In this document: piece after piece, positions 1 through 19,703 of the stretch
Layout of the letters: every line of letters begins with the position of its first letter
Position numbering within the stretch: position 1 is the stretch's first letter
Translations under genes and position numbers: made by a program
Notes under the pieces: model-generated
What the model saw: only the letters and a program-made list of their open reading frames with translations
Told to the model about the DNA's origin: nothing
Databases searched by the model: none
Source: a virus
Lineage: Duplodnaviria > Heunggongvirae > Uroviricota > Caudoviricetes
Length of the DNA stretch: 20,368 nt
IMG/VR virus record: IMGVR_UViG_2563366803_000006
Reading direction: 5' to 3' (one strand)

Positions 1-930
1 CTATGATAACCGCGCATTCAACATGGCTATCTGTTCGTCGTTCATGTCATCAATCCACATACCGTAAATTTCATACACCATCTGCGCAGTTTCATGCCCC
101 ATTTGGCTGGCTATAAATGCCGGGTTCGCTCCTGCCGTCAACAGCCAGCAGGCAAAAGTATGCCGCGTATGGTACGGATTACGGCGGCGAATACCAGCAC
201 GTTTTACTGCTGCATTCCACCTTGCCCCCAAACTGCTTACCGAGTAATAAGGTTTTTGTTTTCCGTTACACACCCTGGGCATGAAAACAAAATGCAGTTT
301 TTGCTTTTCGGTTCTGCCGTACTCCCGATGATAAAAGGTGATTTCGCTTTTGCGATGATGCCCGGTCAGTTTGTATTGCTCCTTCAGTGCTTCAAGAGCA
401 GGCTGCAGTAGTGTTACTGTCCGGATCCCGGCATTTGTTTTTGGGGGACCGAACATATCAAGTATCGTCAGGTTTCTTCTGACATTCACTATTCCCTTTT
501 CGAGATCCACATCCTCCCACGCCAGAGCTGCCAGTTCCCCGTGACGAAGTCCTGAGTAAACTGCAAATTTCCACATGTTCTGGCTCTGTCCTTTTTCACT
601 TTCCATTAATGCATTGAATTCTGTTTTAGATAACGGATCAGGCTTTATTCTGTTTCGCTGTAATTTTTTTACTCCTTCAAATGGTTTGGTTGATATAAAT
701 CCCGACTGATACGCAAAACGTAACAGCGAACAGAGCAGGGCGATATAGTTATCAACTGTGCGCACGGTTCTTCCTTTTTTGTTGGATCTTGGATTATCCA
801 GGTAAAGCGTTTCTCCATGCAGCAGTTCATTCCGGTAGTTTAAGATATCGCTATAACGAATATGTGATATCAGGGTACTTTCACAAATTATTATTCTGAG
901 TGTTTTTAATTGTGATTTCGTTTTCTTCAT
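1..930 (-). CDS. Phage-type tyrosine recombinase (integrase); catalytic domain intact, 5' end probably truncated by IS1
   Basis: 309-codon minus-strand ORF ending with TAG at 3..1. Translation carries catalytic-domain signatures (LRHGE Arg box, HTRHT His-x-x-Arg box, VYEIYG Tyr region). Frame stays open upstream of the Met at 930 as far as the IS1 end at 965. Confidence 0.85.
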   Translation of the reverse strand: MKKTKSQLKTLRIIICESTLISHIRYSDILNYRNELLHGETLYLDNPRSNKKGRTVRTVDNYIALLCSLLRFAYQSGFISTKPFEGVKKLQRNRIKPDPLSKTEFNALMESEKGQSQNMWKFAVYSGLRHGELAALAWEDVDLEKGIVNVRRNLTILDMFGPPKTNAGIRTVTLLQPALEALKEQYKLTGHHRKSEITFYHREYGRTEKQKLHFVFMPRVCNGKQKPYYSVSSLGARWNAAVKRAGIRRRNPYHTRHTFACWLLTAGANPAFIASQMGHETAQMVYEIYGMWIDDMNDEQIAMLNARLS

Positions 931-1020
931 TGTGTTTGTTGTTAACTCTGTCTCTTTAATTTTTGGGTGATGCTGCCAACTTACTGATTTAGTGTATGAT
1001 GGTGTTTTTGAGGTGCTCCA

Positions 1021-1296
1021 GTGGCTTCTGTTTCTATCAGCTGTCCCTCCTGTTCAGCTACTGACGGGGTGGTGCGTAACGGCAAAAGCACCGCCGGACA
1101 TCAGCGCTATCTCTGCTCTCACTGCCGTAAAACATGGCAACTGCAGTTCACTTACACCGCTTCTCAACCCGGTACGCACCAGAAAATCATTGATATGGCC
1201 ATGAATGGCGTTGGATGCCGGGCAACTGCCCGCATTATGGGCGTTGGCCTCAACACGATTTTACGTCACTTAAAAAACTCAGGCCGCAGTCGGTAA
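1021..1296 (+). CDS. insA: IS1 InsA (transposition inhibitor / DNA-binding N-terminal part of transposase)
   Basis: 91-aa [25 protein letters not shown]... with zinc-finger-like CxxC..CxxC and HTH region, GTG start, typical of IS1 InsA. Confidence 0.95.
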
Positions 1297-1718
1297 CCTC
1301 GCGCATACAGCCGGGCAGTGACGTCATCGTCTGCGCGGAAATGGACGAACAGTGGGGCTATGTCGGGGCTAAATCGCGCCAGCGCTGGCTGTTTTACGCG
1401 TATGACAGGCTCCGGAAGACGGTTGTTGCGCACGTATTCGGTGAACGCACTATGGCGACGCTGGGGCGTCTTATGAGCCTGCTGTCACCCTTTGACGTGG
1501 TGATATGGATGACGGATGGCTGGCCGCTGTATGAATCCCGCCTGAAGGGAAAGCTGCACGTAATCAGCAAGCGATATACGCAGCGAATTGAGCGGCATAA
1601 CCTGAATCTGAGGCAGCACCTGGCACGGCTGGGACGGAAGTCGCTGTCGTTTTCAAAATCGGTGGAGCTGCATGACAAAGTCATCGGGCATTATCTGAAC
1701 ATAAAACACTATCAATAA
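1215..1718 (+). CDS. insB: IS1 InsB frame (expressed as InsAB' transposase by -1 frameshift)
   Basis: 167-codon ORF in the -1 frame relative to insA, overlapping the insA 3' end; A6C slippery motif at 1272-1278. Confidence 0.9.
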
Positions 1719-1780
1719 GTTGGAGTCATTACCGCAAAGCTGTATCGCGAGGCGAATCAAGCGCAATTAAACTTTAATAG

Positions 1781-1810
1781 AACCCGCCATCAAGCGGGTT
1801 TTGTTGTTAT
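1781..1810 (+). terminator. Candidate intrinsic terminator just right of IS1 copy 1
   Basis: Hairpin AACCCGC-CATCAA-GCGGGTT (1781-1800) followed by a T-rich tract TTGTTGTTATT. Confidence 0.4.
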
Positions 1811-1841
1811 TGTGGTGTGATATAAGAAACGACATTTAATA

Positions 1842-1975
1842 TTGCCTTCAAAATAAATTTGTTTATATATTGTCGCGTATATTATAAGTGAAGGTGAAAT
1901 GTTCACATAAAATAAAAATACATAAATAAATTTACATAGCTTGACGCAAAGTGTTGTTGCGATTGGAATATTAAA
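1842..1975 (+). promoter_or_regulatory. AT-rich promoter-like region upstream of the tRNA genes
   Basis: Candidate -35/-10 pairs: TTGCCT (1842-1847) with TATATA 16 nt downstream; TTGACG (1941-1946) with TGGAAT/TATTAA downstream. No single promoter can be fixed by eye. Confidence 0.3.
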
Positions 1976-2047
1976 TCGTATCATCGAAAACGGTTCTGAG
2001 GGGGAACTCTTCTTTGCTCGGTGATATCGCTCCCCTGAAGAACCAAT

Positions 2048-2123
<76 letters not shown>

Positions 2124-2126
2124 TAT

Positions 2127-2201
<75 letters not shown>

Positions 2202-2563
2202 GCATTTAAAACAAGCCTTATTGTATTACGGCACTGGCGTATTTTTTTATTACGTGGGAGCAGGTTGTTTTGAAAAAGCATTCTGTTCTCTGGCTATGAT
2301 TTGAGGCCGGGTGTAGCCTCAGTGCTAATTTTTTACGGCAGCAGAATGGTGCATTATCGGTGGAGATTTTGTATTTCCTGGCAGGGTCGGTGATGCATCA
2401 TTTTGGTGTTGTAAAAGCACCACAGAGGCGCTCCTCAGTGCGAGGGTGGTTTAAAGAGTCGGTTTAGCGGGAAACCACAGTATCCATGCAGCACGGAATA
2501 CTTCGGGAGGCACCCGACGCCTCGGTTTAATAACAATTAAAAAATTCATCCCTTGCATTGACC

Positions 2564-2589
2564 AACCGCCATATCTGGCGGTTTTTTTT
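2564..2589 (+). terminator. Strong rho-independent terminator (candidate tR'-like late terminator or tRNA operon terminator)
   Basis: Perfect hairpin CCGCCA-TATC-TGGCGG (2566-2581) followed immediately by eight T residues (2582-2589). Confidence 0.7.
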
Positions 2590-2977
2590 ATTCCTTTCTC
2601 AGGACAAAAAAAGACACGAGCATACAGGAATACTCGTGGGACAACGTCCTTTAGATAGCAATTTGCGAGAGGGTGAAAAGTAGCGCGGTCGTCGGATTAA
2701 GACCGCGGGACAAAGTCCATGAAGAATAATAAGTATTGGCCCCTTCTGGGGACATGTTCATACTACTAAGCTTCAGAAGTGGTTTAAATCATCAAATTAA
2801 CCTTAATTTTCGATAAGTCTTATTTCATTTCTTTGCGCCACACCTGGCGCGCATCAAATAACGCCACGCAAAGGGCATCTGCGGATGCCGGTGCTTTTGA
2901 CGGGGTGTTTTTTACGGGCCGCTGGTGGCCATTTTTTGTTTCCATTACACAGCGCCCGCATCTGCGAGGTGGGGGTT

Positions 2978-3193
2978 ATGAAATCCATGGATAAGTTAAC
3001 AACAGGTGTCGCCTATGGCACCTCCGCAGGCAGTGCTGGCTACTGGTTTTTACAGTTGCTCGATAGAGTCACGCCCTCACAGTGGGCAGCAATAGGTGTG
3101 CTGGGTAGTCTGGTGTTTGGCCTGTTGACGTATCTGACAAATCTTTATTTCAAGATTAAAGAAGATAAGCGTAAGGCTGCACGGGGAGAGTAA
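2978..3193 (+). CDS. Class II holin (pinholin, phage 21 S-like) with dual-start motif
   Basis: 71-aa product [26 protein letters not shown]... with two TM segments and charged C-terminus. Met1-Lys2-Ser3-Met4 dual start. Strong SD GAGGTGGGGG directly upstream of ATG 2978. Recalled similarity to phage 21 S. Confidence 0.85.
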
Positions 3194-3197
3194 TTCA

Positions 3198-3542
3198 ATG
3201 ACTCAAAACTATGAACTGATTGTGAAAGGGATCCGCAATTTTGAGAATAAAGTTACGGTAACTTTAGCGTTACGGGACAAAAAACGCTTTGACGGTGAAA
3301 TTTTAGACCTGGACATCTCGCTGGACCGTGTTGAAGGTGCCGCGCTGGAGTTTTATGAGGCAGCAGCCAGAAGGAGCATCAGACAGGTCTTCCTGGATGT
3401 TGCTGCCGGGTTATGTGAAGGGGATGAGCAGTCACCGGAAAAGCGCCCCATAATTTTAGAGGCGCAGGGTGTGTGGATAACCTACAAAGGAAAACTGCCG
3501 GGAAGAATTACTGGTTCACTGAAGACTCCGCCGAAATGGTAA
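3198..3542 (+). CDS. Hypothetical protein inserted between holin and endolysin
   Basis: 114-codon ORF starting 5 nt after the holin stop, with a G-rich SD-like tract upstream. Soluble-looking, no recognised motif. Position matches that of unknown-function genes found between S and R in some lambdoid prophages. Confidence 0.6.
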   Translation: MTQNYELIVKGIRNFENKVTVTLALRDKKRFDGEILDLDISLDRVEGAALEFYEAAARRSIRQVFLDVAAGLCEGDEQSPEKRPIILEAQGVWITYKGKLPGRITGSLKTPPKW

Positions 3543-3600
3543 TTTCACCAGCATATTTTTCTTCCAGTAATACCGCCAGCCACTTGAAAGAATTTTGTTG

Positions 3601-3780
3601 TTACTGGGACCATTTGGGGTTGAGTGATTCAAGCTGGAGCGATGCCAGTGTTGGTTGCATTTGTTCCTTGGGAATTGAGAATGCCAGATATGAAAATGCG
3701 ACAGTAAGGGCATTTACATCATCCCGAAGCTTGGAAATGCAGTCGAGCAACTCCTGTAGAGAAATGGTGCTATTGTCCAT
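3601..3780 (-). CDS. Small hypothetical protein (59 aa), convergent with the upstream unknown gene
   Basis: ATG at 3780-3778 preceded by GAGAGGA SD-like sequence at good spacing; product MDNSTISLQELLDCISKLRDDVNAL... looks helical. Not recognisable from sequence alone. Confidence 0.4.
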   Translation of the reverse strand: MDNSTISLQELLDCISKLRDDVNALTVAFSYLAFSIPKEQMQPTLASLQLESLNPKWSQ

Positions 3781-3885
3781 AAACAATCCTCTCTATTGTA
3801 TTTAACTATTCCTTGCCTGATTCAACAGGCCGGGACAGATAAACATATCCAGGGTTCAGAAACCGATAAATCCTGATAAATATCC

Positions 3886-4383
3886 ATGAACGCAAAAATC
3901 AGATACGGCCTGTCGGCTGCCGTTCTGGCACTGATTGCCGTCGGTGCGCCTGCGCCTGATATTCTCGACCAGTTTCTGGATGAAAAAGAAGGTAACCACA
4001 CAACGGCATACCGCGATGGTTCCGGTATATGGACCATCTGTCGTGGTGCCACAATGGTGGATGGTAAGCCCGTCATACCGGGAATGAGGCTGTCGAAGGA
4101 AAAATGCGACCAGGTTAACGCTATTGAACGTGATAAGGCGCTGGCATGGGTGGAGCGCAATATTAAAGTACCACTGACCGAACCACAGAAAGCGGGTATA
4201 GCGTCATTTTGTCCCTATAACATTGGCCCCGGTAAGTGTTTCCCGTCGACGTTTTATAAGCGGCTGAATGCCGGTGATCGTAAGGGTGCATGCGAGGCGA
4301 TTCGCTGGTGGATAAAAGATGGTGGGCGCGATTGCCGCATACGTTCAAATAACTGCTATGGACAGGTTATTCGTCGTGACTAG
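3886..4383 (+). CDS. SAR endolysin (T4-lysozyme-type muramidase with N-terminal signal-anchor-release domain)
   Basis: 165 aa. N-terminal weakly hydrophobic Ala/Gly-rich segment ([17 protein letters not shown]), then E-x8-D-x5-T catalytic spacing ([16 protein letters not shown]). Sits downstream of a pinholin. Confidence 0.85.
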
Positions 4384-4880: not shown

Positions 4881-5017
4881 AATCTTAACTACAATATGAT
4901 TCATTTTGATGATTGTTTCATAAGGAACAGTGAAGTAAGATCTAAGAGGAGTTAAATTTTATACAGTATAATCATAATATTGCAGCAAGGTGGTTATAAT
5001 TGAAAGAATATTTAGAT

Positions 5018-6475
5018 ATGAATACATCTCATGTAAGAGTTGTTACTCATATGTGTGGGTTCCTGGTTTGGCTCTATAGTCTTTCAATGTTGCCACCAAT
5101 GGTTGTAGCATTGTTTTATAAAGAAAAAAGCCTGTTCGTTTTCTTTATAACTTTCGTTATATTTTTTTGTATTGGTGGCGGAGCGTGGTATACAACTAAG
5201 AAATCTGGCATTCAATTACGTACCCGTGATGGGTTTATTATAATTGTAATGTTTTGGATTTTGTTTTCTGTTATTAGTGCATTCCCTTTATGGATTGACT
5301 CAGAACTTAATTTAACGTTCATTGATGCTCTGTTTGAAGGGGTTTCTGGAATAACAACAACAGGAGCAACTGTAATTGATGATGTTAGTTCATTACCTCG
5401 GGCATATTTGTACTATCGGTCACAGTTAAATTTTATAGGTGGTTTAGGAGTTATTGTTCTGGCGGTTGCTGTATTGCCATTATTGGGTATTGGTGGTGCA
5501 AAGCTTTATCAGTCAGAAATGCCGGGGCCATTTAAGGATGACAAACTCACTCCCCGCCTGGCCGATACGTCACGGACACTGTGGATAACTTATTCTTTAT
5601 TAGGTATTGCTTGTATTGTCTGTTATAGACTTGCAGGAATGCCTTTGTTTGATGCTATTTGTCACGGGATTTCCACAGTTTCGCTTGGTGGTTTCTCAAC
5701 TCATAGCGAGAGTATCGGATATTTTAATAACTATTTGGTTGAGCTGGTGGCTGGTTCTTTTTCCCTGCTATCGGCTTTCAACTTCACTCTTTGGTATATT
5801 GTTATTAGCAGGAAAACGATAAAACCTTTAATCAGAGATATTGAACTTCGTTTCTTTCTGTTAATAGCCTTAGGGGTGATCATTGTTACCTCTTTCCAGG
5901 TCTGGCATATAGGTATGTATGACTTGCATGGAAGTTTTATTCATTCGTTTTTTCTTGCCAGCTCCATGCTCACTGATAATGGTTTAGCTACGCAGGATTA
6001 TGCAAGCTGGCCCACGCACACGATAGTGTTTTTGCTGTTGTCAAGTTTCTTTGGGGGATGTATAGGTTCAACTTGTGGTGGAATTAAGTCACTTCGATTT
6101 CTTATACTTTTCAAACAAAGCAAACACGAGATAAATCAGCTTTCTCATCCCAGAGCGTTGTTGAGTGTAAATGTAGGAGGGAAGATAGTTACAGATCGTG
6201 TAATGAGGTCTGTATGGAGTTTCTTTTTTCTTTATACTCTCTTCACGGTGTTTTTTATACTGGTGTTAAATGGTATGGGATATGATTTTCTTACATCATT
6301 TGCAACAGTGGCTGCATGTATTAATAATATGGGATTAGGTTTTGGGGCTACTGCATCGTCATTCGGAGTGCTTAATGACATTGCAAAATATTTAATGTGC
6401 ATAGCTATGATTCTTGGTCGCCTTGAAATTTATCCTGTTATTATATTGTTTTCAGGTTTTTTTTGGCGCTCCTAA
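5018..6475 (+). CDS. trkG: TrkG/TrkH-family K+ uptake membrane protein (prophage-borne trkG)
   Basis: 485 aa from ATG 5018; multi-pass membrane protein with TrkH-type motifs (GITTTGATV, GIGGAKLYQSEMPGP, GSTCGGIK). Markedly AT-rich coding sequence. Alternative TTG start at 5000 has a better SD (AAGGTGG). Confidence 0.9.
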   Translation: MNTSHVRVVTHMCGFLVWLYSLSMLPPMVVALFYKEKSLFVFFITFVIFFCIGGGAWYTTKKSGIQLRTRDGFIIIVMFWILFSVISAFPLWIDSELNLTFIDALFEGVSGITTTGATVIDDVSSLPRAYLYYRSQLNFIGGLGVIVLAVAVLPLLGIGGAKLYQSEMPGPFKDDKLTPRLADTSRTLWITYSLLGIACIVCYRLAGMPLFDAICHGISTVSLGGFSTHSESIGYFNNYLVELVAGSFSLLSAFNFTLWYIVISRKTIKPLIRDIELRFFLLIALGVIIVTSFQVWHIGMYDLHGSFIHSFFLASSMLTDNGLATQDYASWPTHTIVFLLLSSFFGGCIGSTCGGIKSLRFLILFKQSKHEINQLSHPRALLSVNVGGKIVTDRVMRSVWSFFFLYTLFTVFFILVLNGMGYDFLTSFATVAACINNMGLGFGATASSFGVLNDIAKYLMCIAMILGRLEIYPVIILFSGFFWRS

Positions 6476-18935: not shown

Positions 18936-18990
18936 GGTGATGCTGCCAACTTACTGATTTAGTGTATGATGGTGTTTTTGAGGTGCTCCA

Positions 18991-19266
18991 GTGGCTTCTG
19001 TTTCTATCAGCTGTCCCTCCTGTTCAGCTACTGACGGGGTGGTGCGTAACGGCAAAAGCACCGCCGGACATCAGCGCTATCTCTGCTCTCACTGCCGTAA
19101 AACATGGCAACTGCAGTTCACTTACACCGCTTCTCAACCCGGTACGCACCAGAAAATCATAGATATGGCCATGAATGGCGTTGGATGCCGGGCAACAGCC
19201 CGCATTATGGGCGTTGGCCTCAACACGATTTTACGTCACTTAAAAAACTCAGGCCGCAGTCGGTAA
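18991..19266 (+). CDS. insA: IS1 InsA
   Basis: 91-aa product identical to copy 1 InsA; both nucleotide differences are synonymous in this frame. Confidence 0.95.
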
Positions 19267-19688
19267 CCTCGCGCATACAGCCGGGCAGTGACGTCATCGT
19301 CTGCGCGGAAATGGACGAACAGTGGGGCTATGTCGGGGCTAAATCGCGCCAGCGCTGGCTGTTTTACGCGTATGACAGGCTCCGGAAGACGGTTGTTGCG
19401 CACGTATTCGGTGAACGCACTATGGCGACGCTGGGGCGTCTTATGAGCCTGCTGTCACCCTTTGACGTGGTGATATGGATGACGGATGGCTGGCCGCTGT
19501 ATGAATCCCGCCTGAAGGGAAAGCTGCACGTAATCAGCAAGCGATATACGCAGCGAATTGAGCGGCATAACCTGAATCTGAGGCAGCACCTGGCACGGCT
19601 GGGACGGAAGTCGCTGTCGTTTTCAAAATCGGTGGAGCTGCATGACAAAGTCATCGGGCATTATCTGAACATAAAACACTATCAATAA
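19185..19688 (+). CDS. insB: IS1 InsB frame (InsAB' by -1 frameshift)
   Basis: Corresponds to copy 1 coordinates 1215-1718; A6C motif at 19242-19248. In this copy the B frame stays open further upstream (to 19104) because TGA is replaced by AGA. Confidence 0.9.
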
Positions 19689-19703
19689 GTTGGAGTCATT
19701 ACC

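Follow-up and report, generated by a model that had tools for sequence, protein, structure and literature searches.

The DNA analyzed here is a stretch of 20,368 nucleotides (nt) from the IMG/VR virus record IMGVR_UViG_2563366803_000006 (hereafter, the window), which is a defective remnant of a Rac-type lambdoid prophage of Escherichia coli. As listed in Table 1, the left part of the window holds a truncated integrase gene, a copy of the insertion sequence (IS) IS1, two tRNA genes and the holin gene, and this study concerns the 776-nt interval between the tRNA genes and the holin gene (2202-2977). This interval is a "moron-site" segment of the late-operon leader without protein-coding cargo, and, judged from its sequence, it probably harbors an STnc100-like RNA, a convergent small RNA (sRNA) candidate on the opposite strand, and terminators that flank them.

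Table 1. Features of the window in order of position.
Feature	Position	Strand	Description and basis
Truncated intR	1-930	-	Pfam integrase; called intR in relatives
IS1 copy 1	966-1733	+	Ends read directly and matched; cuts intR short
tR′-like intrinsic terminator of the short pR′ transcript	1775-1806	+	Scan; conserved after two different upstream gene 3′ ends
Promoter-like site of the tRNA operon ("pT" equivalent)	1957-1984	+	TTGCGA-16-TATCAT; scans; AT-rich stretch upstream; conserved
Leader hairpin	1993-2045	+	~50 nt, GGUUCUGAGGGG...CCCCUGAAGAACC; between promoter-like site and tRNA-Thr; conserved
tRNA-Thr(TGT)	2048-2123	+	ARAGORN, Rfam
tRNA-Gly(TCC)	2127-2201	+	ARAGORN, Rfam
Module A	2202-2415	+	Always present
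A1	2202-2334	+	tRNA trailer, branched structure, then U6 run (terminator T1); RNAalifold, 28 variants
A2	2332-2415	+ only	Imperfect hairpin of ~36 bp; pair table; folding z-score -6.9
Module B	2398-2593	+	STnc100/EcOnc27-like; 3′ end at the T8 terminator
Module B, parts	2425-2430/2518-2523; 2527-2563; 2564-2583	+	Outer helix, with GGGAGGCACCC hairpin; A/U-rich stretch; terminator followed by U8
Module C (optional unit)	about 2595-2820		Present or absent as a whole
Module C, candidate sRNA gene	2605-2788	-	Predicted transcript about 2753-2606, ~150 nt
Module C, terminator	2638-2615, with UCUUUUUUU to 2606	-	Scan; also in the other lineage
Module D	2826-2944	+	Hairpins and terminators just upstream of the holin gene
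Hairpin	2835-2850	+	GCGCC/GGCGC changed to GCGTC/GACGC and GCGCT/AGCGC
Hairpin, terminator-like	2871-2898 (inner 2874-2889)	+	Scan; alignment of relatives
Terminator T4	2917-2930, with AUUUUUUGUUU (T6)	+	Directly before the holin ribosome-binding region
S21-type holin gene, essD-like	2978-3193	+	Pfam PF04971, E = 4.8e-35; essD in relatives' annotation; first gene of the lysis cassette
IS1 copy 2	18936-19703		Same orientation as copy 1

A preliminary description of this stretch, drawn up without database searches, had seen no open reading frame (ORF) of plausible size in the interval, and the longest ORFs indeed comprise only 53 amino acids (aa) on the plus strand, 44 aa on the minus strand and 41 aa on both strands. 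The block was matched in 373 of 5426 complete E. coli genomes (about 7%) with 77-100% identity, and also occurs in two phage records and many IMG/VR contigs; 59 unique sequence variants were extracted from 122 loci. A conserved protein-coding gene in relatives, which would have refuted the reading given in that description, was not found, nor did the alignments of the block variants reveal any ORF kept in frame. Since the alignments contain many indels of 1, 2, 5 and 6 nt, and the "hypothetical proteins" annotated in some genomes run across the terminator hairpin, the region was concluded to be non-coding and these proteins are probably spurious gene calls. Examples are WP_258056483.1 and WP_064226585.1, which overlap terminators and are not conserved in frame, and calls of this kind lie in the relatives L001 (6619-6744, corresponding to 2820-2945 of the window, minus strand), L005 (2618-3016), L007 (2619-2930) and L002 (5189-5506). 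The ORFs of 103-132 aa annotated there in some genomes, together with the TerB and DUF3927 cargo inserted into the region in relatives, could be taken to indicate that the interval is the pseudogene remnant of a decayed protein-coding moron between the tRNAs and the holin. We consider this extremely improbable, because the annotated ORFs (translated for L005 and L007) start with GTG, cross the terminator hairpin and have junk-like sequence, because indels break the frame between the ORFs of close relatives, and because sequence identity at that level combined with compensatory base-pair changes is unlike a decaying pseudogene.

The block always lies 3′ of a phage tRNA-Gly gene, whatever gene lies further upstream (one for a DUF1133 protein, for either of two other Q-annotated proteins, or for a DNA methyltransferase), and it was found with two holin types. 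Parts of it are present, absent or replaced as whole units among the variants, and the interval is a mosaic of four RNA modules, A to D, rather than a single leader. A terminator scan detected six terminator-like sites in 1700-3300, as compared with 1.5 ± 1.1 in shuffled sequences. The perfect hairpin with a T8 run pointed out in the preliminary description was recovered by the scan as an 8-bp stem (2564-2583) followed by T8, and the hairpin was present in all 59 variants, even where the sequences on its flanks are replaced. The hairpins at 2835-2850 and 2874-2889 proved to be real as well: the former shows compensatory changes among relatives, and the latter exists in this lineage, while other lineages, having a 6-nt deletion, use an outer helix (2871-2879/2890-2898). 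Overlooked at that time were the terminator at 2917-2930 with its T6 run, the structure 2230-2236/2320-2326, the 36-bp hairpin at 2332-2415 and the minus-strand terminator at 2638-2615. At the Rfam gathering thresholds only the two tRNAs were recovered in the window and in 14 relatives; matches to a miRNA, STnc240, AbsR28 and tmRNA in E-value mode were rejected as generic hairpin or terminator matches.

The covariance-model search proposed in the preliminary description yielded a divergent STnc100-like match, below the Rfam gathering score, on the plus strand of module B. STnc100 is identical to EcOnc27 of strain Sakai and sRNA103 of EDL933, and is located 75 nt 3′ of stx2B (PMC12370729, PMC12711010). 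The Rfam model RF02076 (STnc100) aligned over its full length (model positions 1-206) to 2398-2593, with E = 0.031 when 1.5 kb were searched and 0.004 when the search was confined to 205 nt; in this alignment, the CGGGAGGCACCCG hairpin is identical and the outer helix and terminator match. The consensus structure calculated independently with RNAalifold from 26 variants, consisting of an outer helix around four hairpins, an unpaired A/U-rich stretch of ~40 nt and a terminator, agreed with the full-length layout of the Rfam alignment. Pairing in this consensus amounted to 98.5%, both partners had changed in four of the pairs, and there were 71 G.U as against 7 A.C cells. Besides the long form found in the window, module B has a short, unrelated form, and the T8 terminator is retained in both.

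Relatives of the block chosen by BLAST gave graded scores against RF02076, namely 22 bits for the window, 27.3 for L246 and 35.5 for L247 (E = 1.4e-4), and the same series scored 105-113 bits with R1, a covariance model built only from sequences of this block. R1 in turn matched STnc100 loci that exceed the Rfam gathering score, at the same coordinates and with E from 4.7e-5 to 0.1, among loci that had been preselected by a shared motif. Among the matched loci were L136 (Salmonella diarizonae, E = 4.7e-5), L127 and L173; most matches of the underlying pattern scan of genome contigs arose by chance in high-GC genomes, and only Enterobacteriaceae loci were kept. The element of L136 also lies 3′ of two Rfam tRNA matches, only the first of which was called by ARAGORN, and its trailer has TTTATTACGTG in common with the window. 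The genomic position fits STnc100, too, that is, the late region of a lambdoid prophage, on the late-operon strand, after tRNAs and before lysis genes. Module B thus appears most likely to be distantly related to STnc100, and by the Rfam criterion it does not belong to that family. The small-RNA alternative, which the preliminary description had mentioned alongside a block of late expression, is therefore the one that the evidence favors, with a putative STnc100-like element whose 3′ end coincides exactly with the T8 terminator. E. coli plasmids, too, carry STnc100-like copies akin to module B (38 places); in L247 (plasmid pWY517IncF, 2209-2671), the copy stands by a degenerate tRNA between IS elements, away from lysis genes.

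Module C was predicted to be encoded on the other strand. In some variants it is absent, and a different small plus-strand terminator takes its place. Its layout comprises four hairpins, a variable single-stranded center and a terminator, and the five helices were 98.7% paired in 33 distinct sequences, with six pairs changed on both sides. The covariation score was reached by none of 500 shuffles, slid controls were only 33-46% paired, the minus strand showed 78 G.U as against 3 A.C cells, and the folding z-score was -3.71. The center exists in two unrelated versions, which recombine with either 5′ half. A promoter-like sequence, TTTAAA (2788-2783)-17-TAGTAT (2765-2760), is conserved as TAGTAT/TAATAT, and from it we infer the putative transcription start and hence a length of ~150 nt. 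Module C is, as far as its sequence tells, most likely a second sRNA, convergent with that of module B. Prophages of both the Rac type and the P27-holin type would carry this putative B-C pair, and the block is common in isolates of human, animal and wastewater origin for which no pathotype is recorded.

Modules A and D flank this pair. The first 100 nt of module A exist in two unrelated versions among the variants, and the closing helix of A1, GGCACUG (2230-2236)/CAGUGCU (2320-2326), does not vary, not even in variants with a different sequence inside it. RNAalifold also revealed compensatory changes in the inner helices of A1, and the scan placed a terminator-like site at 2301-2322. The long hairpin A2 had an alifold energy of -31.0 on the plus strand versus -6.1 on the minus strand, and module A as a whole contained 324 G.U as against 19 A.C cells; by its predicted fold, A2 is a candidate RNase III-type processing site or barrier. 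In module D, which showed 70 G.U as against 5 A.C cells, terminator T4 was invariant in 23 variants, and in other phages it lies ~10 nt before the ribosome-binding site (RBS) of a holin gene of another type. A 678-nt cassette with TerB and DUF3927 is inserted at window position 2858 in several relatives (L008, 2791-3365; L246; L249), and a DUF3927 gene likewise lies upstream of PasD in the enteropathogenic E. coli (EPEC) strain E2348/69.

The interval could also be explained as a purely cis-acting leader, in which hairpins and terminators insulate the lysis genes from read-through, enforce dependence on Q and may direct processing or stability of the tRNA and late transcripts, with no stable trans-acting sRNA. 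Such a leader would account for the presence of at least three plus-strand terminator-like sites within 0.8 kb, of which one is invariant and immediately precedes the holin RBS, for the lack of a clear module B promoter and the weak module C promoter, and for the resemblance of the long hairpin to a processing site. A minus-strand terminator and a G.U bias on the minus strand, however, cannot serve a plus-strand leader, and module C is gained or lost as a unit. Module B, moreover, is built like an Hfq-type sRNA, with a structured 5′ domain, an A/U-rich linker and a terminator, and its relative was demonstrated by Northern blotting and by Hfq cross-linking and analysis of cDNA (CRAC) in enterohemorrhagic E. 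coli (EHEC) (PMC7873438). Even terminated leader transcripts can be functional sRNAs, as in the case of StxS of Shiga toxin (Stx) phages (PMC7547250). We therefore regard a leader acting solely in cis as rather unlikely, and prefer the reading with two convergent sRNAs.

Within this preferred reading, a more specific proposal can be put forward, albeit tentatively, as we suspect that it is somewhat more likely to be wrong than right: module C would represent an undescribed family of prophage sRNAs of ~150 nt, convergent with a divergent STnc100, which swaps seeds or sponge sites in the manner of AsxR and AgvB but arose independently, and the A2 hairpin would free the module B RNA from the tRNA transcript. 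If module C is indeed a new sRNA family, the exchangeable center on a conserved hairpin scaffold would imply seed or sponge swapping like that of AsxR/AgvB.

The preliminary description had likened the interval to the pR′/tR′ late leader of lambda, with the antiterminator gene Q missing upstream. The absence of a Q-like gene was corroborated by the ORF list and the IS1 match, with IS1 copy 1 in its place, and the comparison with Q regions of relatives that had been suggested showed what was replaced. In the relatives, Q encodes a DUF1133 protein that matches Phage_antitermQ weakly; its comparison with solved structures gave no more than a marginal Q21 match (E = 0.25). In L001, which is 100% identical to the window across the block, Q ends 365 nt upstream of tRNA-Thr. 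In the window, by comparison with L001, IS1 copy 1 stands where relatives have the Rac early region, Q and the candidate pR′, and the sequence to its right starts 38 nt past the Q stop codon of L001. In L001, the end of Q and the lost 38 nt together include TTGATT-17-TTCAAT with TACGCT after it, a stretch that is kept behind two different upstream coding-sequence 3′ ends and that we picked by eye as a candidate pR′. Q is lost from the window, and pR′ was probably lost with it. Because IS1 replaced everything from 38 bp past the Q stop, the pR′ unit was reduced to the terminator at 1775-1806, whose position is equivalent to that of the terminators that 933W has annotated 3′ of pR′. The stretch 1744-1810 also matched the Salmonella sRNA STnc370 weakly over its full length (30.4 bits versus a gathering score of 54); by analogy with StxS, the short pR′-terminated RNA of these phages might be related to STnc370, although a literature search brought nothing of use on it.

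The equation of the interval itself with a pR′/tR′ unit, in which promoter and qut would lie within 2202-2560 and the T8 terminator at 2564-2589 would be tR′, could not be upheld. It has in its favor a strong terminator upstream of the holin and a superficially lambda-like layout. In the relatives, however, Q is followed at once, upstream of the tRNAs, by the conserved stretch and a terminator, just as 933W has pR′, qut and terminators there; the promoter scan of 2202-2560 that had been suggested showed no plus-strand promoter-like site; and the genes found upstream of the block include several unrelated Q types and even one for a methyltransferase, a variety that a Q-specific qut would not tolerate. 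Such a unit at this place is highly improbable, and the moron-site segment with an sRNA pair remains our preferred reading. Transcription of the tRNAs probably starts at a promoter of their own (1957-1984), which corresponds in relative position to the pT annotated in 933W and at the place of which P27-type relatives have TTGAAA-16-TAATAT, as read by eye. The leader hairpin between this promoter and tRNA-Thr occurs in compensated versions in P27-type relatives, and the L001 copy (5779-5846) contains a 13-bp tandem duplication; conceivably, this hairpin might act in 5′ leader processing or as a put-like antitermination RNA that needs no protein.

The two IS1 copies, which are in direct orientation, bracket a late region of 17.2 kb with tR′, the tRNAs, the lysis genes, trkG, terminase, and head and tail genes. 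No target-site duplication was found at either copy, and none of the 5426 complete E. coli genomes covers at least 80% of the intR-IS1-tR′ junction. These findings suggest an IS1-mediated deletion or recombination, and the bracketed 17.2 kb formally constitutes a composite-transposon-like unit. The holin gene is followed by ydfR, the genes for endolysin and Rz, trkG, and the terminase and structural genes. The region between holin and endolysin (3198-3885) is taken up by ydfR (DUF1327) and a small ORF on the opposite strand; in relatives such as L002 and L006, the endolysin gene lies directly 3′ of the holin gene. Compared with the L001 gene, to which it is otherwise identical, the endolysin gene has an amber codon at 4381-4383 (CAG to TAG), which removes the last 12 residues (165 aa versus 177 aa in L001) and may fit relaxed selection on lysis, or decay of the lysis cassette, after the loss of Q and probably pR′. 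The potassium transporter gene trkG lies within 5000-6475 between Rz and the terminase genes, as in the Rac prophage of K-12, and its site is a second cargo site of this prophage family.

The sequences show that the segment is conserved as non-coding DNA, with its terminators, its RNA structures and their strands, its modularity, the IS1 junction and its positional match to 933W; the transcription and processing of the segment, any Hfq dependence and targets of its RNAs, and precisely where pR′ lies are inferred. In intact relatives, late transcription would start at pR′ just after Q, and the Q-modified polymerase would cross T1 and the terminators at 2589, 2898 and 2940 to reach the holin gene. 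In the lysogen, the terminators would stop read-through and set the ends of the small RNAs, and transcription from the tRNA promoter would end at T1 or 2589 to give the tRNAs and the STnc100-like RNA. The RNA of module B would thus probably originate from the tRNA promoter and perhaps be released by cleavage at the long hairpin, whereas the minus-strand RNA would come from its own weak promoter. Since Q and almost certainly pR′ were lost to IS1, the lysis and structural genes of the window would no longer be inducible via pR′/Q, while the tRNA promoter, the tRNAs and both sRNA modules are intact. The other alternative raised in the preliminary description, a block of late expression, is accordingly plausible, considering the loss of Q with the pR′ candidate, at least three plus-strand terminators before the holin gene, and the endolysin amber codon.

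Several observations weigh against the interpretation of the segment as an sRNA pair. The two sRNAs are predicted from sequence and structure; the few recombining lineages provide few independent compensatory events, and the strand counts of G.U and A.C cells use structures predicted on the favored strand. Module B scored 22.0 bits and thus missed the RF02076 gathering score of 47, which none of the relatives of the block reached either (best, L247 with 35.5 bits). The enterobacterial STnc100 loci used to test R1 were picked via a shared 18-nt motif, which inflates the R1 scores. In the STnc100 of 933W, R1 recognized only a 15-nt hairpin motif (10.5 bits), and it gave no match in the PasD loci; nor did BLAST find similarity of module B to the 933W or PasD copies. 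A scan revealed no convincing sigma-70 site directly upstream of module B, the module C promoter agrees with the consensus at 8 of 12 positions and was not flagged by the scan, and the pR′ assigned by eye was likewise not flagged by the promoter scan of L001. Finally, no relatives of module C were detectable among AsxR, AgvB, PasA and PasC.

Work on EHEC and EPEC has dealt with convergent Hfq-binding sRNAs of the moron site, which there retune core regulators such as FnrS and GcvB and have been tied to virulence. The block described here suggests that the same architecture, with divergent partners missed by annotation pipelines, is a common feature of Rac-type prophages in E. coli of diverse origin, and that it may outlast the loss of the lytic switch (Q and probably pR′) in defective prophages. 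This would fit the idea that sRNAs and tRNAs are parts of cryptic prophages kept by the host. The result is a testable RNA gene pair with a probable processing hairpin, and the T8 terminator is no longer to be read as tR′.

Among known systems, the unit of pR′, 6S RNA and tR′ in lambda and that of StxS resemble the window in having terminators that require Q-modified polymerase and terminated transcripts that can be functional. In contrast to them, the interval 2202-2977 contains no candidate for a promoter or qut, and the place of such a unit is upstream of the tRNAs. PasA and PasC of EPEC resemble module C in running counter to the late operon, in having an intrinsic terminator and in lying immediately before the lysis cassette, but are 84 nt long as compared with ~150 nt for module C. 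PasD has been proposed as a relative of STnc100 (bioRxiv 10.64898/2026.05.13.724894). BLAST with word size 7 found nothing beyond chance for PasA, PasC or PasD of E2348/69, and neither R1 nor R2, the covariance model of module C, matched the EPEC Pas loci L123, L124 and L245; R2 also found no match in 933W, the EPEC Pas loci and 13 enterobacterial STnc100 loci.

STnc100 shares with module B a length of ~200 nt, the late-operon strand, and a location between pR′ and the tRNAs (or moron) on one side and the lysis genes on the other, as well as an outer helix enclosing hairpins including GGGAGGCACCC, an A/U-rich linker, a terminator and a U-run; in Salmonella diarizonae it, too, follows tRNA genes. 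The binding of EcOnc27 to Hfq, with confirmation by Northern blotting and Hfq-CRAC, has been reported in EHEC only (PMC7873438). Unlike STnc100, module B has no evident promoter of its own, and its expression and binding to Hfq are putative; unlike in the Rfam model, its 5′ end overlaps the 3′ arm of the 36-bp hairpin.

According to Tree et al. 2014 (PMC4104026), Sp5 and seven other Sakai prophages carry convergent pairs of Hfq-binding sRNAs at their moron site, which lies downstream of a pR′ antiterminated by Q; the purpose of such pairs has been described in a review as not clear (PMC7873438). In 933W, the annotated order is Q, pR′, qut, terminators, the tRNA promoter pT, three tRNAs, a terminator, stx2AB and, much later, S and R; STnc100 (3278-3483, plus strand, 207.7 bits) and AsxR (3485-3537, minus strand, 88.1 bits) stand back to back after stx2B, followed by lysis genes. 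The window keeps this order without stx, and its two predicted 3′ ends lie at ~2591 on the plus strand and ~2606 on the minus strand. At the sequence level, it shows the layout of a convergent dyad, with a plus-strand terminator at 2564-2591, a minus-strand terminator at 2638-2606 and strand-specific structure. The antisense partner differs from those of the EHEC dyads in its predicted length (~150 nt versus 51-60 nt) and in its variable part, which is central in the window and at the 5′ end in EHEC. Module C gave no Rfam match to AsxR (RF02703) or AgvB (RF02702) even at E = 10, and this search did not recover the conserved ~42-nt 3′ region of these anti-sRNAs. The host of the dyad is also different, being a Rac-type prophage without stx or another protein-coding moron. 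Common to the window and the EHEC dyads (EcOnc27/AsxR in Sp5 and 933W; EcOnc06/AgvB; PMC4104026) are two opposed terminators separated by a few nucleotides, with about 10 nt between the two predicted 3′ ends in the window, a sense partner resembling STnc100, and an antisense partner that combines conserved hairpins with a variable single-stranded segment. The convergent prophage sRNA pair as such is already known from Stx phages, and the putative pair of the window is a divergent addition to it.

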